Shown: one piece after another, positions 12,629 to 24,457 of the stretch | How positions within the stretch are numbered: position 1 is the first letter of the stretch | Layout: every line of letters begins with the position of its first letter | Assembly: GCA_021849595.1 (NCBI GenBank) | Contig: JAJZSR010000001.1 | Coordinates: 6,004 to 70,003 of the forward strand | Reading direction: 5' to 3' | DNA from: Pseudomonadota bacterium | GTDB lineage: Bacteria > Pseudomonadota > Gammaproteobacteria > Burkholderiales > Thiobacillaceae | DNA length: 64,000 nucleotides | The notes under the pieces: model-generated | The model's database searches: none | Told to the model about the DNA's origin: nothing | Seen by the model: only the letters and a program-made list of their open reading frames with translations | Translations under genes and position numbers: made by a program

Positions 12629-13975
12629 TCATGCCCATTGGACCGCCATCCCCGCCTCGCGCAGGCGCTGCAGCTTGTGACGCAGCGTGCGTGGGCTGAT
12701 GCCCAGGCGTTCGGCAGCCCGTTTCTTGGAACCCTGGCTGTCCTTGAGGGCATCGGCGATCAGGCGCCGTTCGTTTTCCGCCTGAGCGCCCTCCAGGCCG
12801 CTGTCACCCTCGGGCTCGCCGGGCGGCAACTCCAGCCGGGCACCGTCTTCCAGCATCAGGTCATCGATGCCTATGTCCCGTCCGTCGCACAAGATCACCA
12901 TGCGCTGCACGACGTTTTCCAGTTCCCGGACGTTGCCCGGCCAGCGCCACTCCAGCATGGCGCGGCGCGCGCGCGCGTCCAGTTGCGGCGCGCGCCCTGA
13001 ACCATGGGTGGCAGCATAGCGTTGCAGGAACAGTTCGGTCAGCGGCAGGATGTCTTCCCTGCGCTCGCGCAAGGCGGGGATGCGGATGGGAAAGACATTC
13101 AGGCGATAGTACAAATCCTCGCGCAACACGCCTTGCGCCACCGCCTGGCGCAGGTCGCGGTTGCTCGTGGCGATCACGCGCAAATCCAGCGCCACGCGGC
13201 GCCGGCCGCCCACGCGCTCGACTTCGCGCTCCTGCAGCACGCGCAGAAGTTTGGCCTGCAGGCCGGGCGCCATTTCCGTGACCTCGTCCAGCAACAGGGT
13301 GCCGCCCTGAGCCTGCTCGAATTTTCCCGGACTGGCCTGGCTCGCGCCCGTGTATGCGCCCTTTTCGTGGCCGAACAAGGTCGCCTCCAGGAGCGTCTCC
13401 GGAATGGCTGCGCAATTCACCGCGACGAAAGGCCCCTGGGCGCGCGGCGATTTGGAATGGATGTAGCGCGCCATGACCTCCTTGCCCACGCCGCTTTCCC
13501 CCAGCAGCATGATACCCACGTCGGTCTGCGCCGCGCGCCGCGCAACCTGCAGCGCCGCGCCCATGGTCGGCGCGCGCGCCACCAGGCCGTCTTCGCTCTG
13601 GCGCTGCGGGGCGCGCAAATGGCGCTTGACCTTGTCCAGCAGCAGGGCGGCGTCGAAAGGCTTGACCAGATAATCCACTGCCCCCACCTGCAGCGCGGCC
13701 ACGGCGTCCTGGATGGTGCCCCAGGCCGTCATCAGCAGGATGGGCAATTCGGGATAGCCTTGGCGTGCCCGGCGCAGCAGGGTGTAGCCGTCCATGGGCG
13801 CCATCTTGACATCGCTCACCATGAGATGGAAGGTTTCGCCGGCCAGCAGTTGCAAGGCCTCTTCGCCATCGTGCGCGCGCACCGTCACATAGTCGGCGAG
13901 GTCCAAGGCATCCTGCAGCGCCTCCGCCAACGCCTCATCGTCCTCAACCAGCAGTATCCGCGCGGCATCCGTCAC
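12629..13975 (-). CDS. fleR: Sigma54-dependent two-component response regulator (FleR/FlrC type)
   Basis: REC domain (ILLVEDDEAL...DVKMAPMDG), AAA+ domain (GESGVGKE, GAYTGA loop) and a C-terminal Fis-type HTH. Located between fleS and fliE, as in Pseudomonas. Confidence 0.9.
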   Translation of the reverse strand: MTDAARILLVEDDEALAEALQDALDLADYVTVRAHDGEEALQLLAGETFHLMVSDVKMAPMDGYTLLRRARQGYPELPILLMTAWGTIQDAVAALQVGAVDYLVKPFDAALLLDKVKRHLRAPQRQSEDGLVARAPTMGAALQVARRAAQTDVGIMLLGESGVGKEVMARYIHSKSPRAQGPFVAVNCAAIPETLLEATLFGHEKGAYTGASQASPGKFEQAQGGTLLLDEVTEMAPGLQAKLLRVLQEREVERVGGRRRVALDLRVIATSNRDLRQAVAQGVLREDLYYRLNVFPIRIPALRERREDILPLTELFLQRYAATHGSGRAPQLDARARRAMLEWRWPGNVRELENVVQRMVILCDGRDIGIDDLMLEDGARLELPPGEPEGDSGLEGAQAENERRLIADALKDSQGSKKRAAERLGISPRTLRHKLQRLREAGMAVQWA

Positions 13976-15197
13976 GATTTTCTCCTTTTGCCTGTTCGTC
14001 CGGGTTTCTCAAAGGCCCGCTTTCCAGCGCCTGGGCGCCCTGCCACAAAGGCACGCTCAGCGCGATGCAGGCACCTGGGAGCGCTGCGGGCTCGGCCCAG
14101 CAGCGCCCGCCCATGCTGTTCACGAAATCGCGCACGATGGCCAGGCCCAGGCCCGTGCCCCCGCTGCGCGTGCTGTAAAACGGCGTGAACACCCGCTCGC
14201 AATCCTGGAGAGCAATTCCGGGGCCAGCATCGCGTATGCGCAAGAGTAGCGCCTGGCCGTCGCGTTGCGCGGCCACGAGGATCGCGCTGCCGGCGGGGCT
14301 GAATTGCAGGGCATTGTGCAAAATGTTGCCGATCACGCTGACCCAGGCGGGGCCGCCGCCGGGGAGGATGACCCCGGGCGGGAGTTCTCCGATCTGCAAG
14401 GCGACGTTTTTTTGACGCAACAAATCATCAAATTCCTGACGCAAATCCCATAGCACTTTTTCCAACGGCACCGTGCCGTCGCCGCCTTCGCCGCGCAGGA
14501 AGCGCAGCATTTCGTTGATCGAGCGCTCCAAGCTGCGCAACCGTTCGATGCCGCGGTCGCGCAGGCGGGCGAAACGCGCGGGTTCCGTCTGAGGCGTGAG
14601 CTGGGAGATGGACAAGAGAGCCGTGGCCAGCGGAGTGCGCAACTGATGGGCCAGCCCGGCCATGGTTTCGCCCAGGGCCGCCAAGCGCTCGCGGCGCTGG
14701 AAGGCCTCCTCGCGCTGGCGCGCCTCGGTGACGTCCTGCATCAGCAGTAGCCGCCCCTGACCGTCGGGAAGCTGATTGACGGACAGCGTCAAGCGCAGTT
14801 CGGCGTCCTCGCCGCGCCGCAAGCGCCAGTCGCTGCCGGCGCCGGAGAGCGATTCCTCCGCCACTGCCGCCCAAGGCCGGCCCACGGCTTGGAGTCCGAA
14901 CAGGCGCGCGGCTTCCGGGTTCATTTCCTGGATCGTCCCCTGCGGATCCAGACTCACCACCGCGCCGGGCAGGGCCTGCAGCAGCAAGGCCAGGCGCCGA
15001 TGCAGGCGCTCCTTTTCCAAAAGTTCGTCGCGCAGCTTGGCGTTGGTGCGGGCCAGTTCGTCGTTCAGGCGCGCTATCTCCACCTGCAGGGTGGCATAGG
15101 CCTCCGAGAGCGTGCGGGACGTTTCGTTGAAGACGGCAAAGGCCTGCGCCAGGCGCGCGGCCTCGGCCGAGTCGGCTTCAGGCTTCATGTACCGCAC
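13944..15197 (-). CDS. fleS: Cytoplasmic PAS sensor histidine kinase (FleS/FlrB type)
   Basis: No TM segment. N-terminal coiled coil, PAS region, H-box LAHQLRTPLA and HATPase motifs (GLGLAIV). Confidence 0.88.
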   Translation of the reverse strand: MRYMKPEADSAEAARLAQAFAVFNETSRTLSEAYATLQVEIARLNDELARTNAKLRDELLEKERLHRRLALLLQALPGAVVSLDPQGTIQEMNPEAARLFGLQAVGRPWAAVAEESLSGAGSDWRLRRGEDAELRLTLSVNQLPDGQGRLLLMQDVTEARQREEAFQRRERLAALGETMAGLAHQLRTPLATALLSISQLTPQTEPARFARLRDRGIERLRSLERSINEMLRFLRGEGGDGTVPLEKVLWDLRQEFDDLLRQKNVALQIGELPPGVILPGGGPAWVSVIGNILHNALQFSPAGSAILVAAQRDGQALLLRIRDAGPGIALQDCERVFTPFYSTRSGGTGLGLAIVRDFVNSMGGRCWAEPAALPGACIALSVPLWQGAQALESGPLRNPDEQAKGENRDGCRADTAG

Positions 15198-16281
15198 CGG
15201 CTGCGCGCATGACGCTGATGCCCAGTTTACGGATCTTCTCCACCAGGGTCGTCCGCCTCAGCCCCAGCCGGTTGGCGGCATGGGCGATCACGTAATCGTG
15301 CGCCGCCAGCGCCTGTTCGATGAGCGAGCGCTCGATGCCTTCGAGATAGGCTTTGAGATCTATGCCTTCGGGCGGTAGTGCCGGGCCGGGGTCCGCCACC
15401 AGGCGCATGAGTTCGTTCAGGCCGTCATCGGGCTCCGCCGGCGCCGGCATGCTGGGCAGTCCGGCGCACATCTTGGCCGGAAGGTCATCCAGGCCCACAG
15501 TGCCGCCGGCATGCAAGATGACCAGACGCTCGACCAGATTCTGCAACTCGCGCACATTGCCGGGCCAGGCATATTCCAGCAGCGCGTGACGCACCGCGGG
15601 GTCGAGCCGGATGCCGCCCATGCCGGCATCGCTCAGGCGCTTCAGAGTCTGCTCGGCCAGCAACAGGATGTCCTCGCCCCGTTCGCGCAAAGGCGGCACG
15701 CGGATGGGGAAAACATTGAGGCGATAGTAGAGGTCTTCGCGAAAGCTGCCCTGCTCCACATGCCGCTCCAAATCACGGTGCGTGGCCGCGACGATGCGCG
15801 CCTCGGCGCGCACGGCACTGCTGCTGCCCACCCGCTCGAAACTGCGCTCCTGCAGCACACGCAGCAGCTTGACCTGCAGCGCCGGACTCATTTCGGCGAT
15901 TTCGTCGAGGAACAAAGTACCCCTGCCGGCCAGCTCGAAGCGCCCCTTGCGCGCCGCGGTGGCGCCGGTGAAAGCGCCGCGTTCGTGGCCGAACAACTCG
16001 CTTTCCATGAGTTCTCCGGGAATGGCGCCGCAATTGATGGCCACATAAGGCTGGCCCCCTCGTGGCGACCAGGCGTGCAGGGTGCGCGCCACCAGTTCCT
16101 TGCCGGTGCCCGATTCGCCCAGGACCAGCACCGTGCTGTCGGTCGCCGCGACGCGGGCGATCATATTGCGCAAATCGCGCATGGCCGTACTGTCTCCGAG
16201 CAACGGGCAGTCGGCTTCGTTGTTTTTCTCCGCCATGGCGCGATTGTATTTTTGCCCGAGAGAGCTGTCCATCGGGCTCAT
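15178..16281 (-). CDS. Sigma54-dependent transcriptional activator (FleQ-position gene) with no N-terminal receiver/FleQ domain
   Basis: The AAA+ domain starts about 10 to 25 residues after any plausible start (LLGDSTAMRDLRNMIARVA, GESGTGKE, GAFTGA), followed by a C-terminal HTH. The start is uncertain: 16281, 16272 or 16236. The longer ORF to 16545 overlaps the real SPOR gene. Confidence 0.8.
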   Translation of the reverse strand: MSPMDSSLGQKYNRAMAEKNNEADCPLLGDSTAMRDLRNMIARVAATDSTVLVLGESGTGKELVARTLHAWSPRGGQPYVAINCGAIPGELMESELFGHERGAFTGATAARKGRFELAGRGTLFLDEIAEMSPALQVKLLRVLQERSFERVGSSSAVRAEARIVAATHRDLERHVEQGSFREDLYYRLNVFPIRVPPLRERGEDILLLAEQTLKRLSDAGMGGIRLDPAVRHALLEYAWPGNVRELQNLVERLVILHAGGTVGLDDLPAKMCAGLPSMPAPAEPDDGLNELMRLVADPGPALPPEGIDLKAYLEGIERSLIEQALAAHDYVIAHAANRLGLRRTTLVEKIRKLGISVMRAAGAVHEA

Positions 16282-16324: not shown

Positions 16325-17008
16325 TCAGTCGCGGCCTCCATCCTTGCGCAGGAAACCCCGGATGCCCACCGTCTGCTTGAGCCGATCGCGCGCGCGCAGG
16401 GCCTCCCGCCCATCGTGGTAAGGTCCCGCCAGCACCAGCGTGAGCCCGCGCGCGTCCGAGGTGCAGACAGGGAAGCCGTGCCCCCGGCCTTGCGCCACGA
16501 GATCGCGGACATGCGCCGCTCCGCGCAGCGCGCCCAACTGGACATACCAACCCCTGGCCGGGCAGGGCTGCGCCAACGAAAGCACGGCCGGACGTGCCGG
16601 CTCGGCAGGGGACGTGCTGGCCGCCGCCCGCGCAGGTGCGGCCTGCGCCGCAGTGCCGGTATCCGCCCTCCCCTGCACCACGGCTGGCTCGCCGGGAGCC
16701 GCCGTCTGGGGAACCGTTACCGGTGCCGCACTTTTGCCTGCAGTCGTCGGCTGGCCACCGGCTGGCGCGGTCAAAATAGTTTGCGGGCGCACCACCACCG
16801 GCTTGGGCGAAACTGTCGACGCAGGCAGACGTTCTTGCGCCACCGGCCGGCCGCCTTGCGACGTCACGGTTCGGCCAGCCTGCCCGGCCAAGTAAGCGAA
16901 AACCGCCAAGCCCAACGCCGCGGCCATGCTGGCCAGAATGGCGAGATTCAGGCCGGCGAAGCGCCGCCCCAGGCGCCCGAATTCGTCCGCTCTCACCCCT
17001 GCCGCCAT
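16325..17008 (-). CDS. SPOR-domain (peptidoglycan-binding) membrane-anchored protein
   Basis: One TM segment (LNLAILASMAAALGLAVFAYLAG), a Pro/Ala linker and a C-terminal SPOR-like module (GWYVQLGALRGAAHVRDLVAQ...LVLAGPYHDGREALRARDRL). Confidence 0.75.
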   Translation of the reverse strand: MAAGVRADEFGRLGRRFAGLNLAILASMAAALGLAVFAYLAGQAGRTVTSQGGRPVAQERLPASTVSPKPVVVRPQTILTAPAGGQPTTAGKSAAPVTVPQTAAPGEPAVVQGRADTGTAAQAAPARAAASTSPAEPARPAVLSLAQPCPARGWYVQLGALRGAAHVRDLVAQGRGHGFPVCTSDARGLTLVLAGPYHDGREALRARDRLKQTVGIRGFLRKDGGRD

Positions 17009-17010
17009 GA

Positions 17011-17847
17011 TCAGCCCCGCTCCTGGATGCCGCCGGACATCAAAGGGGTGTTCCCCACCTGCGTCGGATGCTGCGGGGCCACCACCACGATGGACACGCG
17101 GCGGTTCTTGGCCTGCCCCTGCGGATTGCCGTTGGAGGCGATGGGATGGTATTGGCCGTAGCCGGCCGCCACCAGTTGTTCGGGCGCCACGCCCTGGTCT
17201 ATGAAGATTTCCACCACAGTGACGGCGCGCTGCGCCGACAGCGCCCAGTTGGACTGGAATTGGGGCGTGTGGATAGGCACGTTGTCGGTAAAACCGTTCA
17301 CCTGGATCTGATAGGGAATGCTGCGTATGACATGCGCCACCCGGGTCAGCACGGCGTCAGCGCCGGGCGCGAGGCTAGCCTGGCCGGAAGCAAAAAGCAC
17401 CTTGGCGTTGATTTCGATCACCACGCCCAGTGGGGTGAGATTGATATTTACGTCACCCTTGTCGATCAGCGGCTTGAGCAGAGTTTTGATCTGCAAGGCG
17501 ATTTTTTCCAGCGCCTGCGAGGCATCCTTGGGCTCGGGCGTGGGGCGCTCGATGATGCTGACATGAGGAACCGGCTGGAGCGAGGTGGGTTGCGGAAGGG
17601 GGGGAAGCTTGACCGTCGAGGCGACGGTGTTGAACGGCTCGCCCTGCTGGATAGGCGCCGGCATTTTGGGCTGGCCGGTGAAAGCGGCGAACAGGGTGTC
17701 GGAAAGGACTTTGTATTTGCCCTCGTTGACCGAGGAGATCGAGTACATCACCACGAAAAAGGCAAACAGCAGGGTGATGAAATCGGCATAGGAAACCAGC
17801 CAGCGCTCGTGGTTTTCATGCTCTTCGTGGACAGGTTTGCGCGCCAT
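17011..17847 (-). CDS. motD: MotB/MotD-type flagellar stator B subunit (OmpA-like C-terminus). No adjacent MotA/MotC gene
   Basis: N-terminus HENHERWLVSYADFITLLFAFFVVMYSISSVNEGKYKVLSD, with the conserved Asp in the TM helix. C-terminal OmpA-like peptidoglycan-binding domain (NGFTDNVPI...SNWALSAQRA...NRRVSIVV). Confidence 0.85.
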   Translation of the reverse strand: MARKPVHEEHENHERWLVSYADFITLLFAFFVVMYSISSVNEGKYKVLSDTLFAAFTGQPKMPAPIQQGEPFNTVASTVKLPPLPQPTSLQPVPHVSIIERPTPEPKDASQALEKIALQIKTLLKPLIDKGDVNINLTPLGVVIEINAKVLFASGQASLAPGADAVLTRVAHVIRSIPYQIQVNGFTDNVPIHTPQFQSNWALSAQRAVTVVEIFIDQGVAPEQLVAAGYGQYHPIASNGNPQGQAKNRRVSIVVVAPQHPTQVGNTPLMSGGIQERG

Positions 17848-17871
17848 GCAGTAAGTTATTTATGGTCCGTT

Positions 17872-17898
17872 GGGTTGGCGGGGGCGGCCCCCCAACCC
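17872..17898 (-). other. GC-rich hairpin between the unknown gene and motD
   Basis: GGGTTGGCGGGGGC/GCCCCCCAACCC imperfect palindrome with no T-tract. It could be an attenuator or a REP-like structure. Confidence 0.35.
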
Positions 17899-17922
17899 AT
17901 TAACGGCAGGCGCGGCCGGGAT

Positions 17923-18489
17923 TTAAGGGGTGGTGCGCTGGCGCGCCACGTCGCGGCGGTGGTGGCGGAAAATCAGCCGCTCCAGGCCCCGCTGCACGGC
18001 GGGTTCCAGACCTCTGAATTCGAGGGTTCGGCAATATCCATGAGCCTGCAGGGCGTGTTCTTCCACCACGACGCCCGGCAAGACGAGCGGCATGACCACA
18101 CGCTGGCGCAGATAAACGCGCGTCCAGAAATGCTGGCCTACCCCGAGGGCCTCTGGGCTGGCCCAGCGCAGCGTATGCGCAGTGAGGATACAGGGAAACG
18201 GCGGCGGCACCTTCCCCATCCCGCGCAACGCGGCGCTGGCCATGAGCAACAACAAATCGACCCGACGTTCCAGCGACTGGATGCCGCTGTCCCGCGCGTG
18301 CTCCGTTTCGGCGGCGCCGGCCGCCTCATCCATGGCCAGCAGGGCGCGCAATAGGACGTGGTTGTCGGCCATGACATCCGAAAGCGCCGCAGGGTCTTCC
18401 GGTGGAGCCCCCCAGGCCAAGGGCAATTGGCCTTCCAGCCTGACGGCATCGCCGCCGGCCAGGCTGTTAAGTTCGTGGTAAGCAGTCAT
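17923..18489 (-). CDS. Hypothetical protein (about 188 aa), possibly a PilZ-like or other flagellar accessory protein
   Basis: GC3-rich ORF in operon position between fliS and motD, with a C-terminal RRDVAR (RRxxxR-like) motif. I recognise no family with certainty. I chose the start at MTAYHELNS. Confidence 0.55.
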   Translation of the reverse strand: MTAYHELNSLAGGDAVRLEGQLPLAWGAPPEDPAALSDVMADNHVLLRALLAMDEAAGAAETEHARDSGIQSLERRVDLLLLMASAALRGMGKVPPPFPCILTAHTLRWASPEALGVGQHFWTRVYLRQRVVMPLVLPGVVVEEHALQAHGYCRTLEFRGLEPAVQRGLERLIFRHHRRDVARQRTTP

Positions 18490-18637
18490 CGCAGGCTCCC
18501 AAAGCTCCAACTCGGCGCGACTTGGGCCGCGCTTCGGCTCCAATAGTATAGGAATTGCGCCGAAGAACTTTCAGCCGGGTTCGCCGGCGCTCAGCCCGTC
18601 CACCTTGCGGGAACCAACCGGCCTGGAGCCAGCGCCG

Positions 18638-19018
18638 CTACTCGCCGACGGCCAACCAGGCTTCCTTCAGACTGCCTACGGCGGCGCGGCACTGCGCCAG
18701 GGCATCGAGATCGTTGAAAATATTGGCTTGGGCAAGCTGCGCGAGCAAGGTGGTATATACCCGTTCGAGCCCGGTACTCAGGTTCGTTGTGTTCTGCACC
18801 GCCTCTGCGGGCAAGATGGCCAGCAAGTGCTCGACGATGCGGTAGGCCTTGTCCAGCGGAATCACCTTTTTGGCATTATCGGCGGCCTTGATGGCCTCCT
18901 CCGCGCGCTGCAGATATTCGAGGATGCCGTCCAGCCCCTGGAGGTAGAGCTGCTCCCCCGACACGCCCTGGTGTTCGATTTGGCGATAAGCGCGCAATGC
19001 TTGCTGAGCGGTGTACAT
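18638..19018 (-). CDS. fliS: Flagellin chaperone FliS
   Basis: 126 aa four-helix-type sequence (AYRQIEHQGVSGEQLYLQGLDGILEYLQRA...KAYRIVEHL) downstream of fliD. Confidence 0.9.
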   Translation of the reverse strand: MYTAQQALRAYRQIEHQGVSGEQLYLQGLDGILEYLQRAEEAIKAADNAKKVIPLDKAYRIVEHLLAILPAEAVQNTTNLSTGLERVYTTLLAQLAQANIFNDLDALAQCRAAVGSLKEAWLAVGE

Positions 19019-19026
19019 GGACGATC

Positions 19027-20964
19027 CTAACCCGAAGTGGTCGACGAATTCGATGAGGTAGTGCTGAAGAAGGCGTTGAGGTAATTGCCCACGGATTGCA
19101 ACTGGGCGAGCTGCGCCTGCATGGCCTGGAACTGCTGTGTAAGCAGGGCCGTCTGCGCCTGCGCCGACTGCTGCAACTGGGTGATCTGGTTATTGATGCC
19201 GTTGATGGTCTGGTTCAGGCCGTCCGCCGCCGCGGCAATGAAGCCGGTCTGGCTGTTGAGGGCGGAAGACAGGATGCTGGTCATCTGCTGGTACAGTCCC
19301 TGGCTGACCGTCACCGTCCCCAGGTTTCCGGTGACCTGCCCGGTGATCGTCAACTGCAGGCCCAGGGCATTGCCCGGCCCTGTGACCGTCAACTGCTGGC
19401 CGGAGCCGCTGCCCGCCTGGCCGTTGACGGTGCCGACGACATCGGTGCCCGTGCCCGTCAGCGTGGTCGTGCCTATACCCGTGCTGCCGCTGCCGGCCGC
19501 CACGTTGGACACCACGCTGAAGCTCTGCGCACTGCCGTAGCCGCTGGTCTGCAATTCCAAGCTACCGTTGTTGTCGAGCGCCGAAATGCCGCTCAAACCC
19601 TGCTGCGCCAAAGCGCTGTTGATGGTTGAAACGATGGCGCTGATGGTGCTGCCGGAGGTCAGATTGACGGCCACGCTGGTGCTGCCAGAGGTGATGGTCA
19701 GCGTCTCGTTGCTGGTAATTCCGCCGCTGGCGACGGGATTGGAGGCCGTGACGCTGGCTTGGGTCGCGGCGCTGGTGACGCCGACGGCATAGGTGCCTGC
19801 CTGGGTGGCGCTTCCGGCCGCGACATACTGCACGTTGCTGTTGGTAGTCGTGCCCACCTGGCCGAACAGGCCGGCCACCGCGTTGTAATTGCTCGACAAG
19901 GCCTGGTTGAGCGTGCCGGTGTCGAGCACCAGCGTGCCATCCTGGTTGAGGTTGACCCCTACACCTCCCAGCGAGGCATAAGGACTGTTGGGCACCGTGC
20001 CTATTCCTTGGCCGCTGATCAAATTGAGCAACTGGGTGCGCAGCGACGTCAGCGCGGCATTGCCGATGAGCGGCCCGCTCTGCCCGGAGGGTCCGCCGTA
20101 GGCGGTCAGTTGGTTCATGGTGCCCATGGCACTGTTGAAGGCGCTCACGAAACTCTGCACAGCGCTCACGAAAGCGCTGCTGTCGGTGCCCACGGTCAGC
20201 GTCGTCGAACCGGAGGCGGCAAGCAAGTTCAGGCTCACCCCAGGGATCGCCCCGCTCACCGAATTAGTCGCGCTGCTGATATTGAGCCCGTTGACCGTAA
20301 AGGACGCGTTTTGCGCCGCCTGCGACAGCGTCATGCCACTGCTGGTGCCGCTACTGTAGCTCAGACTGGACAGCGAGCCGGTGGCGCCGCTGGTGCTGAC
20401 CGTGAAGGCGCTGCCCGAGCCGGTGTTGGCCCCCGTGAGCGTCAAACGATAGCCGGCGCCGTCATAGATGACCGCGGCATCGACGCCCGCGTTGGCGCTG
20501 TTGATCGCGGCGGCAATACCGTTCAGGGTATTGTTGCTGCTGTCTATGGTAACGTTGGCCACCGTCCCGCTGCCGACCTGAATCTGCAAGGTACCGGTGC
20601 CGACCGCCGTATTGCTGGCCGAGCTGAAATCCTGCGAATAAACGCTCTGCGCCTGTGCCAGCACGATGTTGCTCAGGCTGTAGCTGCCCAAGGGCGCATT
20701 GGCTTGTACGGTGGCGGACGCGGCGCTCGAGTTGCTGAGCGTGACGGAGCGGTTGTTCAGGCTGCCGACGTTCTGCAGCCCCGCGAGTGCCGACTGTAGG
20801 CTGGACAGGCTGCCCTGCATCTGGCCCCAGGCGCTCAGCGTGGTCTGGTAAGACTGCCCCTGGGACTGCAATAAAGTGATGGGCTGCTGATAGGCGGCGC
20901 TGATGGTCGAGATCAACTGATTGATGTTGACCCCGCTCACCAGCCCGGACAAGGATACCGACAT
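19027..20964 (-). CDS. fliD: Flagellar filament cap protein FliD
   Basis: 645 aa with conserved N-terminal (SGLVSGVNINQLISTI) and C-terminal coiled-coil regions and a Ser/Thr/Gly-rich centre. Confidence 0.93.
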   Translation of the reverse strand: MSVSLSGLVSGVNINQLISTISAAYQQPITLLQSQGQSYQTTLSAWGQMQGSLSSLQSALAGLQNVGSLNNRSVTLSNSSAASATVQANAPLGSYSLSNIVLAQAQSVYSQDFSSASNTAVGTGTLQIQVGSGTVANVTIDSSNNTLNGIAAAINSANAGVDAAVIYDGAGYRLTLTGANTGSGSAFTVSTSGATGSLSSLSYSSGTSSGMTLSQAAQNASFTVNGLNISSATNSVSGAIPGVSLNLLAASGSTTLTVGTDSSAFVSAVQSFVSAFNSAMGTMNQLTAYGGPSGQSGPLIGNAALTSLRTQLLNLISGQGIGTVPNSPYASLGGVGVNLNQDGTLVLDTGTLNQALSSNYNAVAGLFGQVGTTTNSNVQYVAAGSATQAGTYAVGVTSAATQASVTASNPVASGGITSNETLTITSGSTSVAVNLTSGSTISAIVSTINSALAQQGLSGISALDNNGSLELQTSGYGSAQSFSVVSNVAAGSGSTGIGTTTLTGTGTDVVGTVNGQAGSGSGQQLTVTGPGNALGLQLTITGQVTGNLGTVTVSQGLYQQMTSILSSALNSQTGFIAAAADGLNQTINGINNQITQLQQSAQAQTALLTQQFQAMQAQLAQLQSVGNYLNAFFSTTSSNSSTTSG

Positions 20965-20990
20965 CGCGCCCCCGTAATCCTATAAAAACA

Positions 20991-21368
20991 CTATGCCTTG
21001 CCGCTCAGCAGGCTGCCCGGCGCAAGCCGGTCGGCGTTCTTGGCCGCCTGCAATGCCTGATCGGCAGGAATGTAATATTGATAAAACACTTGCTGCGTGG
21101 CTTTGTCCATCAGTTCAACCAAGACTTGGCCAGGATGGTCGCCGTTGGGATTCAGCCCGGCGCGCAAAGTGATGGAAGACGAATTTTGCGCCACCCGCTC
21201 CTGCAAATGCTGAAGCGCCTGCGCCAGATCCTGCGACGGCACCGAGGACACTCCGCTCCCTTGGGATGAACCCGGCGTTGCTGCGGATACCTTCGCATTG
21301 GGCTGGGTAGGCGTCCCCGAGGGCACGGTCTGCTGGGCTGCCAAACTGGAACTGGGATTTATCTCCAT
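20991..21368 (-). CDS. flaG: FlaG-family flagellar protein
   Basis: 125 aa with the C-terminal motif VLVELMDKATQQVFYQYYIP, located between fliC and fliD. Confidence 0.85.
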   Translation of the reverse strand: MEINPSSSLAAQQTVPSGTPTQPNAKVSAATPGSSQGSGVSSVPSQDLAQALQHLQERVAQNSSSITLRAGLNPNGDHPGQVLVELMDKATQQVFYQYYIPADQALQAAKNADRLAPGSLLSGKA

Positions 21369-21388
21369 GACTTATATCCCCCCGCAGA

Positions 21389-21410
21389 CCCCCCGGATCG
21401 CTCCGGGGGG
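21389..21410 (-). terminator. Strong GC hairpin immediately after the fliC stop (terminator or attenuator)
   Basis: CCCCCCGGA-tcgc-TCCGGGGGG: 9-bp perfect stem with a 4-nt loop, 13 nt downstream of the fliC stop. The U-tract is weak. Confidence 0.6.
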
Positions 21411-21422
21411 TTGCCCTTTGGA

Positions 21423-22898
21423 TTACGGCAACAGCTTGAGGTAGCTCTGCTGCAGGGCGTTGGCTTGCGCCAGGGTGGAGATGCCGGCCTGCTGCAGGAT
21501 CTGGTACTTGGTCAGTTGCGAGGTCGCCTCGGCGATGTTCGCATCCTGCACCACGGAGCGCGCGGACTGCAGATTGGTCGCGGTGGTCTGCAAGTTCTGC
21601 ACCGATGCCTGTACCCGATTCTGGATCGCGCCGAGCGCGCCGCCTTGCTGGTTCAAGGCATTGATGGCGTTGTCGATGATCGAGATGGCCTGGTTGGCGC
21701 CCTGCACCGTGGACACGCTGACCGTTGACGCGGCATTGAGCGAGCTGATGTTGGACAGCCCGATGTTGGTGCCATTGCTCAGCGAGTAGCCTTGCGTCGA
21801 TTGCAATTGGACGTAGCCCTGGACCAGCGCCGTGCCCGCCGCGCTCGTAATTGCGGAAGCACTGCCTGCCTGCAACGTTCCGCTGCCGCCGAAGCCGGAA
21901 ATCAGGACGTTGTGGCCCTGATTCTGCGTCAGCACCAGTTGGTTGCTGGAGTTGACGCTGGCCGCCACGCCGGTCTGCGCCGTGCTGTTGTTGATCGCCG
22001 CGACCAGGCCGCTCAAGCCGGTGGGATCGACGCTAGTGACGTTGGCCGAGATGTTGACCGTGTTGGTCGGGCTGCCCGAGGTTCCGTTGGAGATGGAGAA
22101 GGAAAACGAGCCGCTCGTCACGGAAAACGCCACGCTGGTGTTGGCCGTTGCGCTTACCCCGGTCTGCTGCGTAATGGCGTTGAACGACGCCGCAATGTTG
22201 GCCGCCGATTCGCTCGCAGTCACCGCTACACCGCTGGCGCCGGCGGAGCCGGATACGTTTACCGTGCCGGCCGTGAAATTGCCCGCGCCGGTGCTGATGG
22301 TATAGGCGGAACCGTAGCCGTTGGAGGTGACTGAACCGCTGCCGGCAGCGTAGACACTGCCGCTGGTGGCGACGGTATTCACGCCGATGGCATTGGCCTG
22401 CGCATTGGAGATGGAGACGTTGATAACCTGGTTGGCGTTCGCGCCCACCTGGAACTGCTGGCCGGAAAAGCTGCCGTCCAGGATGTTCTGGCCGTTGAAC
22501 TGGGTCTGGGTGGCAACGGTTTGCACCTGGGCCAGCAGTTGTGACACGACTCCCTGCAGGGAAGCCCGGTCGGCCGAGGTGTTGGAGCCGTTGGCTGCCT
22601 GCACGGCGATGGTGCGGATCTGCTGCAGCAGATTGGTTTCGTTCTGCAGCGCGCCCGTGGCCGTCTGCACCAAGGACACCGCCTGGTTGCCGTTGGACAC
22701 CGCCTGGTTCAAGCCATTGATCTGCGTGGTGAAGCGCTGGGCGATGGCGTAACCGGCAGGGTTGTCCGCCGGGCTGTTGATCGCCTTGCCCGTGGAAAGC
22801 TGCTGGATATAGGTAGAAAGATTGCTGGAAGTATCGTTGAGCGCGTTGAGCGTGCTCAGGGAATTGATGTTGGTGTTGATGATCCCTGTAATTGCCAT
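21423..22898 (-). CDS. fliC: Flagellin
   Basis: 491 aa with conserved D0/D1 N-terminus (INTNINSLSTLNALN...LSTGKAINSPADNPAGYAIAQRF) and C-terminus (QILQQAGISTLAQANALQQSYLKLLP). The Ser/Thr-rich central domain carries two flagellin-IN-like motifs. Confidence 0.97.
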   Translation of the reverse strand: MAITGIINTNINSLSTLNALNDTSSNLSTYIQQLSTGKAINSPADNPAGYAIAQRFTTQINGLNQAVSNGNQAVSLVQTATGALQNETNLLQQIRTIAVQAANGSNTSADRASLQGVVSQLLAQVQTVATQTQFNGQNILDGSFSGQQFQVGANANQVINVSISNAQANAIGVNTVATSGSVYAAGSGSVTSNGYGSAYTISTGAGNFTAGTVNVSGSAGASGVAVTASESAANIAASFNAITQQTGVSATANTSVAFSVTSGSFSFSISNGTSGSPTNTVNISANVTSVDPTGLSGLVAAINNSTAQTGVAASVNSSNQLVLTQNQGHNVLISGFGGSGTLQAGSASAITSAAGTALVQGYVQLQSTQGYSLSNGTNIGLSNISSLNAASTVSVSTVQGANQAISIIDNAINALNQQGGALGAIQNRVQASVQNLQTTATNLQSARSVVQDANIAEATSQLTKYQILQQAGISTLAQANALQQSYLKLLP

Positions 22899-22904
22899 GT
22901 TGAA

Positions 22905-22939
22905 GCTCCTTTCATAAGCCTAGTTCGGCATCCTTGCCG
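22905..22939 (-). promoter_or_regulatory. fliC 5' leader with two GGA motifs: one in a hairpin loop and one in the Shine-Dalgarno sequence (putative CsrA sites)
   Basis: The minus strand reads CGGCA-AGGA-TGCCG (22939..22926), a 5-bp stem presenting AGGA in the loop, and AAAGGAGC (SD, about 22912..22905) 7 nt before the ATG. Confidence 0.55.
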
Positions 22940-22951
22940 TCTTGCGGGCTT

Positions 22952-24457
22952 TCAGCCTGCAACAGGCTTATCGTCACGTCCCCTGAAAACTTTAGCGTGC
23001 ATATTCTGTGGCGACGCTGGGTGTTGATGCGGCTCTTCGCGCAAAGCCTGCAGGCGCCGATGCAACTCCCCGATTTTGGCAACGAGTTCATCGACACGCG
23101 GGGCAGCACCTGCGGGCGCCGGGGCATTTGCCGCGCCCGGGGCGCATAACCGGCCGCAGAACGCCGCAATGGTCTGAGCGGCCTGCGCTTGGCGCGCCAG
23201 CCCCTCGCGCAAGCTGGCCAGGGCTGGCCGCACATCGGCCCGTAGTGCCTCTACCGGCTCCGCGTCGGCCGCAGCCTCCCCAGCCTGCAGCGCTAGGCCG
23301 GCTTGCGCGATGTCGCGCGCCAAATCCATGCCTTCGGCGCACAGGGGGTCGAGCTGTTCGCCCAAAGCGGCGAGCTGGGCGGGTTCGGCTTGGCCCTGCA
23401 GTAGGGCCAGACGCAGATTCAGGCATAGCAGTAGCAGCTGCTCGACTTTTTCCCCCGCTGCTTGCAGAGCCGGGGCCAGGCCATCGGGCTGCGCGTGGCC
23501 GCGCCTGCGCTCGGGCAGCTCCCGCGCCAACGCGTCCTGGATTTCCTGCGCCCGCTCGCTGCCCGAGCGCAAGCCGGCGGCGAGCCCCTGCAGGCCGCGC
23601 AGCAATTTATCGAAATGCTCGGCCCCCGCAAGCTGTGGACCGGTCTGGACCGCGGCGCAGACCTTGGCCAGTTGACCGGCCAGTGTCTCCAACTCTGCCG
23701 CCGCTTGTTCCGCCTGCGCCAGCTTGCCCACGGCGGCTTCCCGCATGTTGGCGCTGCGGCCCTCCAGTTCCTCCAGGTCTGCCGCCAGCGCGCGCAAGCC
23801 GCGCCCGACGGGCAAGGCTGCCACCGACAAACCGGCCGCCATGGCCCGTAACCGATCGCGCAGGGCAGCGTGCTGGCGGCGCCAGCCCCAGGCCAGATAG
23901 GCGGCCGCCAGCCCCAGCAGCGTGACGCTGCCCAGGGCGAACAGCGCCAGGTTGTGCTCCACCATGACGCGCAGTCGGGCGCTGCGCGCGGCCTGCGCCA
24001 GTCCCTGGCGCCCCAGGCGGGCAGCATATCGGCCCAGCGCCTGCTGCAGCCGCGCCAGTTGCGCCGTCGAAGCGGCGGTAAGCACCGCACCGCTGGCGAG
24101 CGGGTGGCTCAACTCCACCAGTGCGGCCAACGCTTGCCGGTCGGCCCCGTCGAAGGGCAGCGCAGCCGCCTGGCCGTAGAGACCCTGCAAGACCCCATCG
24201 GCAAACTGCATGCGGTTGCCGGCGACCGCCGCCGCGCCGTTGGTCCCCGATGCGGCCTGGTTCGCCAGTTGGCGCGCCGCCGCCACCTCGTTCTGCACCA
24301 CTTGCAGTTGCATGGTCATCCGGCCCAGCCGCGCCCGCGCTTCCATGCCCTGCTCGACGCCCCGCAACTGCCAATAGGCCCAGGCCGCCCCGCCAGCCAG
24401 CAAAGCGGCGGCGACCAGGGCCAGAAAGAGTAACGCGTAGCCGGGGGTAAGCTTCAC
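22952..24457 (-). CDS. MCP-like membrane protein: TM1, periplasmic region, TM2 and a long Ala/Leu-rich coiled coil, without a canonical MCP signalling tip
   Basis: 501 aa with TM segments at the N-terminus and around residues 170-195, followed by about 300 aa of heptad-like Ala/Leu/Gln sequence. There is only a weak tip-like stretch (EQLLLLCLNLRLALLQG). Its start overlaps the upstream cheW-like stop. Confidence 0.6.
   Translation of the reverse strand: MKLTPGYALLFLALVAAALLAGGAAWAYWQLRGVEQGMEARARLGRMTMQLQVVQNEVAAARQLANQAASGTNGAAAVAGNRMQFADGVLQGLYGQAAALPFDGADRQALAALVELSHPLASGAVLTAASTAQLARLQQALGRYAARLGRQGLAQAARSARLRVMVEHNLALFALGSVTLLGLAAAYLAWGWRRQHAALRDRLRAMAAGLSVAALPVGRGLRALAADLEELEGRSANMREAAVGKLAQAEQAAAELETLAGQLAKVCAAVQTGPQLAGAEHFDKLLRGLQGLAAGLRSGSERAQEIQDALARELPERRRGHAQPDGLAPALQAAGEKVEQLLLLCLNLRLALLQGQAEPAQLAALGEQLDPLCAEGMDLARDIAQAGLALQAGEAAADAEPVEALRADVRPALASLREGLARQAQAAQTIAAFCGRLCAPGAANAPAPAGAAPRVDELVAKIGELHRRLQALREEPHQHPASPQNMHAKVFRGRDDKPVAG
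22968..22994 (-). promoter_or_regulatory. Sigma28 (FliA) promoter of fliC
   Basis: The minus strand reads TAAAGTTT-N11-GACGATAA against the consensus TAAAGTTT-N11-GCCGATAA (one mismatch), about 70 nt upstream of the fliC ATG. Confidence 0.85.

Follow-up and report, generated by a model that had tools for sequence, protein, structure and literature searches.

A motD-SPOR gene pair beside a tPilZ gene in the flagellar cluster of a Thiobacillaceae bacterium

We analyzed a 64,000-nucleotide stretch of DNA from a member of the Thiobacillaceae (Burkholderiales; GenBank assembly GCA_021849595.1, contig JAJZSR010000001.1, positions 6,004 to 70,003), here called the window, and in particular a flagellar stator gene, motD, that it carries between fliS and a gene for a sigma-54 activator. 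The genome is a metagenome-assembled genome (MAG) of 229 contigs that is 91% complete, and the window belongs to its contig C151. A second genome of the same genus, 99% complete, is referred to below as the congener. The minus strand encodes, in order, fliC, flaG, fliD, fliS, a tPilZ (tetramer-forming PilZ) protein, motD, a SPOR-domain protein and the activator, which occupies the position of fleQ. Beyond it follow fleS, fleR, fliE, fliF and fliG. Genes of a polar flagellum are present in the genome, as judged by the fleN and fliA context, and we interpret the locus as a Thiomonas-type version of a polar-flagellum gene cluster that, by a somewhat better than even chance, encodes three parts of one stator system. 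The genes and their boundaries are the following.

18638..19018, minus strand: fliS, the upstream boundary (PF02561, E = 2.4e-19; TIGR00208, 63.7 bits against a cut-off of 53.75).
17923..18489, minus strand: gene for a tPilZ protein of 188 aa, XCC6012 family (PF16823); predicted not to bind cyclic di-GMP (c-di-GMP) in the canonical mode; candidate FlgX-like stator partner.
17011..17847, minus strand: motD, 278 aa, B subunit of a MotC/MotD-type stator (MotB_plug, OmpA, NCBIfam MotD).
16325..17008, minus strand: gene for a bitopic SPOR-domain protein of 227 aa, coupled to motD (PF05036, E = 6.5e-12).
15178..16281, minus strand: sigma-54 activator gene in the fleQ position, the downstream boundary (Sigma54_activat, E = 3.5e-71, and HTH_8).

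The three open reading frames (ORFs) between the boundaries lie on the minus strand where a preliminary description, made from the letters of the DNA alone, had placed them. The 188-residue ORF begins with an ATG behind a GGGAG Shine-Dalgarno sequence, and its exact product is present in a public protein collection. The preliminary description was also correct that motD has no A-subunit gene beside it; fliS and the sigma-54 activator flank the trio, and no MotA or MotC gene adjoins motD in this interval. It had allowed that a motC or motA gene might be misassembled or missing here. An assembly artefact is ruled out by the congener, which is syntenic across the region, and by Thiomonas isolates with the same layout.

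MotD is a typical B subunit. In Pfam it matches MotB_plug (E = 2e-21) and OmpA (E = 2e-18), and it scores 301.5 bits against the NCBIfam MotD equivalog, for which the cut-off is 283. The HERWLVSYADFITLLFAFFVVMY segment with the channel aspartate (SYADF) and the peptidoglycan-binding motif NWALSAQRA (NxxLSxxRA) are readable in the protein. The plug segment, the Asp-bearing transmembrane helix and the OmpA-like domain that define MotB/MotD subunits are all present.

MotD had been called an orphan, and a genome-wide search for motA and motC copies had been suggested. This search returned four MotA_ExbB matches. Three are TolQ or ExbB, each followed by ORFs whose translations read as TolR/ExbD-like and TolA/TonB-like proteins. 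The fourth is motC, the single flagellar copy, which encodes 260 aa (C151:412-1194) and lies directly after fleN and fliA on the same contig, 22 kb from motD. The cognate A subunit is encoded in the genome, and it is its separation from motD that is atypical. Each of the two genomes of the genus has one MotB_plug gene, which in the present genome is motD. The congener has one motC (97% identical) and one motD, likewise 22 kb apart in a region that is syntenic throughout, and T. bhubaneswarensis also has one of each, 52 kb apart. No second flagellar stator was found in this genome or in the congener. Because both hold one flagellar A-subunit gene and one B-subunit gene, MotC and MotD are most simply read as the two halves of the genome's only flagellar stator, with genes that are split rather than orphaned. 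The partnership is also supported by A. caldus, where deletion of rpoF (sigma-28) lowers expression of both motD and the motA gene that follows fliA (PMC6543871), the co-regulation expected of partners. For annotation, this means that a B subunit without an A-subunit neighbor need not be an orphan.

The preliminary description had proposed a stator-swapping module, in which MotD would be a spare B subunit that exchanges into another A-subunit complex. Many relatives do have two stator sets: most of the genomes tabulated in an order-level sample of 201 carry two MotB_plug genes, and a motAB pair exists alongside motC and motD in both T. delicata and A. ferrianus. However, the present genome and its congener hold a single A and a single B subunit, which leaves no partner for a swap, and we regard this explanation as highly improbable.

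We compared 40 relatives, of which 25, including the congener, have MotD. Among these 25 the layout described here occurs in the congener only. The arrangement fliA-motC-motD is kept in 22 of the 24 MotD-bearing relatives outside the genus, which bears out the earlier remark that the window's arrangement is unusual. The two exceptions, both of the same order (G040, locus L027, and G029, locus L036), carry motD by itself at another place, lacking both a SPOR gene and any motC closer than 1.5 kb. One of these motD genes faces three small ORFs, presumably flgA, flgM and flgN to judge by position only; the other lies after an ORF of 312 aa that we assume to encode a signal-peptide peptidase. In a further relative (G005) a convergent 427-aa gene after motD has no Pfam match. 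In the window's genome a gene for a 108-aa DUF2802 protein with one hydrophobic helix lies directly after motC (C151:89-415; L020:89-415), about 5.6 kb before the start of the window. It fills the slot held by motD in relatives, and the congener is arranged likewise.

The gene downstream of motD encodes a protein that matches SPOR (PF05036) with 46.1 bits against a cut-off of 21, and is predicted from this family assignment to bind glycan. A short cytoplasmic N-terminus precedes its single hydrophobic helix; a linker rich in Ala and Pro then leads to the SPOR domain, which is C-terminal and contains two invariant cysteines. The ATG stands 2 nt after the TGA of motD, behind GGAG. The SPOR gene is translationally coupled to motD and its product is a membrane-anchored periplasmic protein.

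The tight pairing that had been noted from the 2-nt spacing is kept in 26 loci, where a motD-linked ORF of 179-303 aa starts at the motD stop codon or a few bases around it, in most cases with an overlap of 4 nt. Of these, 24 are the Thiomonas-type loci whose sequence extends far enough downstream; the other two are those of A. ferrianus and Igneacidithiobacillus copahuensis. Common to all 26 proteins are an NRLRWLNR-like motif in the cytoplasmic part, a single hydrophobic helix, a linker of Ala, Pro and Ser that varies, and a SPOR domain in which the C..GWYVQxGAF block recurs and two cysteines are invariant. In A. ferrianus and Igneacidithiobacillus copahuensis the pair lies elsewhere, beside fliW and ahead of cheZ or cheY, and motC stays after fliA, in A. 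ferrianus 45 kb from the pair. motD and the SPOR gene are a fixed pair. In A. caldus the corresponding SPOR gene is presumably the one that separates motD (A5904_1452) from cheY (A5904_1450), judging by the locus tags. Searches with a family-specific SPOR hidden Markov model found no such gene next to motD in the 24 relatives outside the genus or in Thermithiobacillus, Sedimenticola, Dyella and Luteibacter, and the idea that the pair is a general feature of motCD operons was rejected on these results. No paper that links SPOR to a stator was found in the literature searched. The motD-SPOR pair and its place beside a tPilZ gene appear to be previously undescribed.

In the two Acidithiobacillaceae a divergent gene of 284-335 aa lies just upstream of motD-SPOR (L147:651-1505 in Igneacidithiobacillus and L144:5453-6460 in A. 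ferrianus). The Igneacidithiobacillus gene has a weak PilZ match (E = 0.005, below the cut-off), and motD in this family may adjoin a different PilZ-type protein.

The SPOR protein could instead be an ordinary division protein of the DedD/FtsN type that is co-transcribed with motD and has no role in the motor. DedD, FtsN and DamX have the same bitopic architecture, and the best NCBIfam matches, although weak, are DedD (31 bits, cut-off 150) and FtsN (20 bits, cut-off 525). In a profile search of 5.8 billion proteins the matches beyond the family were only housekeeping DedD-like proteins. One of these that was looked up, from Stenotrophomonas, has a Mur-ligase-family gene before it, Colicin_V-family and amidotransferase genes after it, and no flagellar genes near, an order that we take to be the folC-dedD-cvpA-purF arrangement of E. 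coli. However, the scores fall far short of the DedD and FtsN cut-offs, and the family is sharply separated in the profile search, with members at 97 bits or more and everything else at 73 bits or less. The coupling to motD is also kept at two genomic sites, in Burkholderiales and in Acidithiobacillaceae, and the genome has six SPOR genes, so that five others are available to cover division. We consider a pure division role unlikely.

The 188-aa protein matches PF16823, the "atypical" tetramer-forming PilZ family, with 42.6 bits against a cut-off of 25, over profile positions 1-135 of 136. It has no other domain and is the only copy above the cut-off in the genome. An AlphaFold2 model, built from an alignment of 17 homologues, has a mean pLDDT of 79 and a pTM of 0.74. 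In the model a strand (residues 18-27) is followed by helices at 33-62 and 69-89, five strands, and a last helix at 163-186. Two long helices (alpha2 and alpha3) are predicted to interrupt the beta-barrel after strand 1, and the C-terminal helix comes last, as in the tPilZ fold. The seven best matches to the model in the PDB are all chains of XCC6012 (3PH1 and 3RQA; TM 0.64-0.73, probability 1.0), followed with much weaker scores by the PilZ domains of MotI and YcgR. Residues 74-78, ERRVD, fit the published tPilZ interlocking motif [DENH]x[KR]h[DEN] (10.1101/814665) and align with DAKLD of XCC6012; E74, R76 and D78 are invariant in the alignment. The segment FRHHRRxVARQR is invariant among the homologues and belongs to the basic C-terminal helix that is typical of tPilZ proteins. 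By Pfam and predicted fold, the protein is a tPilZ of the XCC6012 family.

The preliminary description had guessed at a PilZ protein, to be checked by structure prediction, with an unrelated housekeeping family as the alternative. The superfamily was guessed correctly, as the PF16823 match and the predicted fold agree. The reason given for it was not: the string RRDVAR had been likened to the RxxxR motif that contacts c-di-GMP, and was rejected on position, as the true motif lies before strand 1 and RRDVAR is part of the C-terminal helix.

The same comparison had led to the proposal that c-di-GMP controls stator engagement through this protein. Membership of the PilZ superfamily favors it, and YcgR, MotI and FlgZ are precedents for PilZ proteins that act on stators. 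PA2989 is among the tPilZ proteins that do bind c-di-GMP (PMC11725899, 10.1101/814665), and one review has XC_2249 as a binder (PMC3749722). However, neither RxxxR before strand 1 nor [D/N]hSxxG is present in the window's protein or its 16 homologues, and the one RxxxR string sits in the last helix, the equivalent of which is also found in XCC6012. Isothermal titration calorimetry (ITC) gave no reliable binding of c-di-GMP by XCC6012 (PMC3131395), and FlgX is likewise no binder (PMC11725899). As the motifs are missing and both relatives are non-binders, canonical c-di-GMP sensing is unlikely, and we give control of the stator by this route a very small chance.

A profile scan of species-representative genomes for tPilZ yielded 80 loci. 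In 46 of these a fleQ-type gene comes next with no motD between, among others in Acidithiobacillus, Igneacidithiobacillus, Thermithiobacillus, Sedimenticola, Steroidobacteraceae, Dyella, Luteibacter and Rhodanobacter. In 31, from Thiomonas species, allied Burkholderiales MAGs and the window's genus, motD is directly next, and three end before the following gene can be read. The position of the Xanthomonas gene downstream of fliS and upstream of fleQ has been described (PMC3131395). Since tPilZ sits between fliS and fleQ without motD in 46 loci, this interval is its usual place, and motD-SPOR is what was added. The three genes had been described as inserted together; only motD and the SPOR gene were added.

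In the order-level sample all 43 genomes with a tPilZ gene also have a MotB_plug gene, compared with 133 of 201 overall. In one family of this sample (f28) a MotB-type gene of about 300-310 aa consistently lies 6-7 kb from the tPilZ gene (for example G153:C1:4580304-4587917, G105:C4, G196:C25 and G051:C352), which is another recurrent tPilZ-stator neighborhood.

Taken together, we give a slight preference to an explanation in which the locus combines a split MotC/MotD stator with a coupled SPOR wall anchor and a FlgX-like tPilZ. The gene identities and families, the copy numbers, the coupling with its conservation, and the single clade of SPOR-paired MotDs described below are observed here; the physical interactions and the roles of the SPOR and tPilZ proteins would be as follows. 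MotD would act as the proton-channel and peptidoglycan-anchoring B subunit, together with the single MotC encoded 22 kb away. The SPOR protein most likely stands beside MotD in the periplasm. SPOR domains bind glycan strands without stem peptides, and OmpA-like domains bind the peptide. The SPOR domain could be a second wall anchor on such denuded glycan, for example at poles that derive from septation, and would complement the OmpA-like domain of MotD. Because the two domains differ in this way, the motD-SPOR pair could hold stators on the polar wall left by septation. The tPilZ protein would most likely form a tetramer on the cytoplasmic face of the MotC pentamer, by analogy with FlgX of Campylobacter, and would keep stator units stable or in place with no sensing of c-di-GMP. 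FlgX, itself a tPilZ, binds MotA and stabilizes the stator ring independently of c-di-GMP (PMC11725899). The evidence for such a function here is gene context, the tPilZ gene adjoining motD in 31 loci.

Several points weigh against this explanation. The genome is a MAG that is 91% complete, so that a second stator could have escaped notice; the 99%-complete congener makes this much less likely without disposing of it altogether. The binding of denuded glycan at poles comes from general SPOR biology, and SPOR proteins are classically division proteins. Immediate adjacency of tPilZ and motB is rare, occurring in this genome only among the 201 of the order-level sample, in several of which the two genes lie 6-45 kb apart inside flagellar regions; a widespread adjacency was rejected on this count. 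The Campylobacter flgX gene is not adjacent to motAB, which places adjacency outside the FlgX precedent (PMC11725899).

A further point concerns XC_2249, the tPilZ orthologue of Xanthomonas campestris, which is reported to act with GGDEF proteins on the pilus ATPases PilT and PilU (PMC3749722). The main rival for the tPilZ protein is that it is a type IV pilus adaptor of this kind, which would form a complex with RpfG and GGDEF proteins and contact PilT and PilU, with its adjacency to motD incidental. The same review lists two GGDEF proteins and PilT/PilU as interaction partners of XC_2249, both this genome and the congener carry pilT and pilU, and a gene with a GGDEF match lies at the fliC end of the Thiomonas locus. 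However, dozens of genomes, spread over several orders, have the tPilZ gene inside a flagellar cluster between fliS and fleQ, and not near pil genes. Every one of the 43 order-sample genomes that have it carries stator genes, and the one tPilZ whose structure has been seen in situ belongs to the stator (PMC11725899). A pilus adaptor seems doubtful to us, if less so than a division role for the SPOR protein.

A more specific form of the stator explanation is that motD-SPOR and tPilZ make up a two-sided stator-retention module of a simple polar proteobacterial motor, in which the SPOR protein would pin MotD to denuded polar glycan and the tPilZ tetramer would clamp the MotC pentamer. We offer this tentatively, as a minority possibility. 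If true, tPilZ would be a general stator component well beyond Campylobacterota, and SPOR would count as a stator anchor of a new class.

A maximum-likelihood tree of 50 MotDs, in which 28 rows are labelled as linked and the linkage was verified for 26, places the 22 sampled SPOR-paired MotDs, including that of the window, in one group (support 100/100, stem of 0.92 substitutions per site). The clade takes in the Acidithiobacillaceae MotDs, and its sister is Thermithiobacillus, where motC and motD are linked. A 14-member clade of MotDs from the window's own GTDB family lies apart. The window's MotC is 74-76% identical to that of Thiomonas, 70% to that of Acidithiobacillus, and 60-64% to those of its own family. 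The corresponding values for Thiomonas and the own family are 61% and 45-50% for MotD, and 53% and 25-29% for tPilZ. In contrast, RuvB is 80-81% identical to the own family, 82-83% to Thiomonas, and 69% to Acidithiobacillus; this single-protein comparison was not used to place the lineage, and the case for a foreign origin rests on the MotD tree and the MotC identities. The tree and the identities of MotC, MotD and tPilZ, set against RuvB, indicate that a gene set of this type has probably moved laterally among sulfur- and iron-oxidising lineages.

The fleS kinase gene (window 13944-15197) lies between two sigma-54 activator genes here and in Acidithiobacillus, and is missing from Thiomonas loci. 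Because it has kept fleS as in Acidithiobacillus, unlike the Thiomonas loci, the window's cluster is intermediate between the two layouts. At window positions 19027-22898 (fliD, flaG and fliC), FliC is 90% and FliD 79% identical to T. delicata, compared with 48-74% for the flanking flagellar proteins. As these proteins are much closer to T. delicata than their neighbors are, the comparison suggests that the filament genes were exchanged more recently than the rest of the cluster.

Scans for promoters and terminators gave only weak candidate sites around the trio, which together with one predicted RNA structure are the following.

18545..18574, minus strand: candidate promoter-like site 5' of the tPilZ gene, CTGAAA-18-TATACT (consensus scan and congener comparison).
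17900..17925, minus strand: candidate sigma-28-type promoter for motD-SPOR, TAAATCCC-N10-GCCGTTAA, overlapping the tPilZ stop codon.
17871..17899, minus strand: G+C-rich hairpin between the tPilZ gene and motD, without a T-run (RNA fold).

The region of the first site contains a block, TTCGGCGCAATTCCTATA(C/T)TATTGG, that is conserved in the congener. The putative sigma-28 site agrees with the consensus at 11 of 16 positions here and at 12 of 16 in the congener, with a spacer that is one base short, and motD-SPOR may be transcribed from this site of its own. For comparison, a near-consensus sigma-28 promoter lies 5' of fliC (window 22899-23100; TAAAGTTT-N11-GACGATAA, 15 of 16 positions). The 96-nt stretch with the hairpin has a z-score of only -1.5 and a similar sequence in the congener. 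The terminator scan found no intrinsic terminator between tPilZ and motD.

What had been observed in the window is confirmed, and the interpretation first placed on it is partly supported. The 2024 paper on FlgX poses the question whether the 5:2 stator also has working partners among the tPilZ proteins of bacteria other than Campylobacterota (PMC11725899). This question can now be tested, as several proteobacterial orders have bona fide tPilZ genes among their flagellar genes and, in the Thiomonas group, the gene comes immediately before a stator gene. This layout is independent context evidence on the question, and the motD-SPOR pair with its place beside tPilZ makes it testable whether tPilZ is a stator component in general. 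The coupled motD-SPOR genes also suggest a candidate type of peptidoglycan anchor that is new to stators, one that would recognize glycan without stem peptides and would bear on how polar motors retain their stators. The SPOR and tPilZ proteins are two candidate stator helpers that can be tested in culturable acid-mine organisms: in Thiomonas isolates, for example T. delicata DSM 16361, and in A. caldus, for example strain MTH-04, a species for which gene knock-outs are on record (PMC6543871).

Among known systems, the window's tPilZ most resembles XCC6012/XC_2249 of X. campestris (PF16823; 3PH1, 3RQA). The likeness includes the predicted fold (TM 0.64-0.73), the two-helix insert, an interlocking motif of the ERRVD type, the basic C-terminal helix, the missing canonical c-di-GMP motifs, and a stand-alone, single-copy gene downstream of fliC-fliD-fliS and upstream of fleQ (PMC3131395). 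However, sequence identity is only about 22-25%, in the Xanthomonas locus the tPilZ gene is separated from fleQ by regulator and rpoN genes instead of motD-SPOR, and the function reported for XC_2249 concerns pili. FlgX of Campylobacter jejuni (PMC11725899) shares the structural family, the lack of c-di-GMP motifs, a C-terminal helix that matters for function, and the connection with the MotA/MotB stator. It differs in being confined to Campylobacterota, in having no interlocking motif, and in the position of its gene, which lies between ubiA and flgW with no stator gene beside it. For FlgX, stator binding has been demonstrated, whereas here we infer it.

The MotCD system of Pseudomonas aeruginosa and the fliA-motC-motD operons of the window's own family share with the present system a MotD that passes the equivalog cut-off and a motC that follows fliA. 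They differ in that motC and motD are unlinked here, with the DUF2802 gene after motC in the slot of motD, and in that this MotD falls in a separate clade with the Acidithiobacillaceae MotDs, sister to Thermithiobacillus. MotX/MotY of the Vibrio T-ring, FliL, and MotE/MotK of Cereibacter (PMC10954123) are, like the SPOR protein as proposed here, additional proteins, periplasmic or bitopic, that work together with the B subunit. However, none of these has a SPOR domain. DedD, FtsN and DamX resemble the SPOR protein in topology, in the low-complexity linker and in the C-terminal SPOR domain. The conserved cysteine pair of the motD-linked protein recalls the disulfide reported in the SPOR domain of FtsN. 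It is set apart from the division proteins by scores far below both the DedD and FtsN model cut-offs, by its motD context, in contrast with the Mur-ligase-family, Colicin_V-family and amidotransferase neighbors of the Stenotrophomonas gene, and by its own conserved cytoplasmic NRLRWLNR motif.

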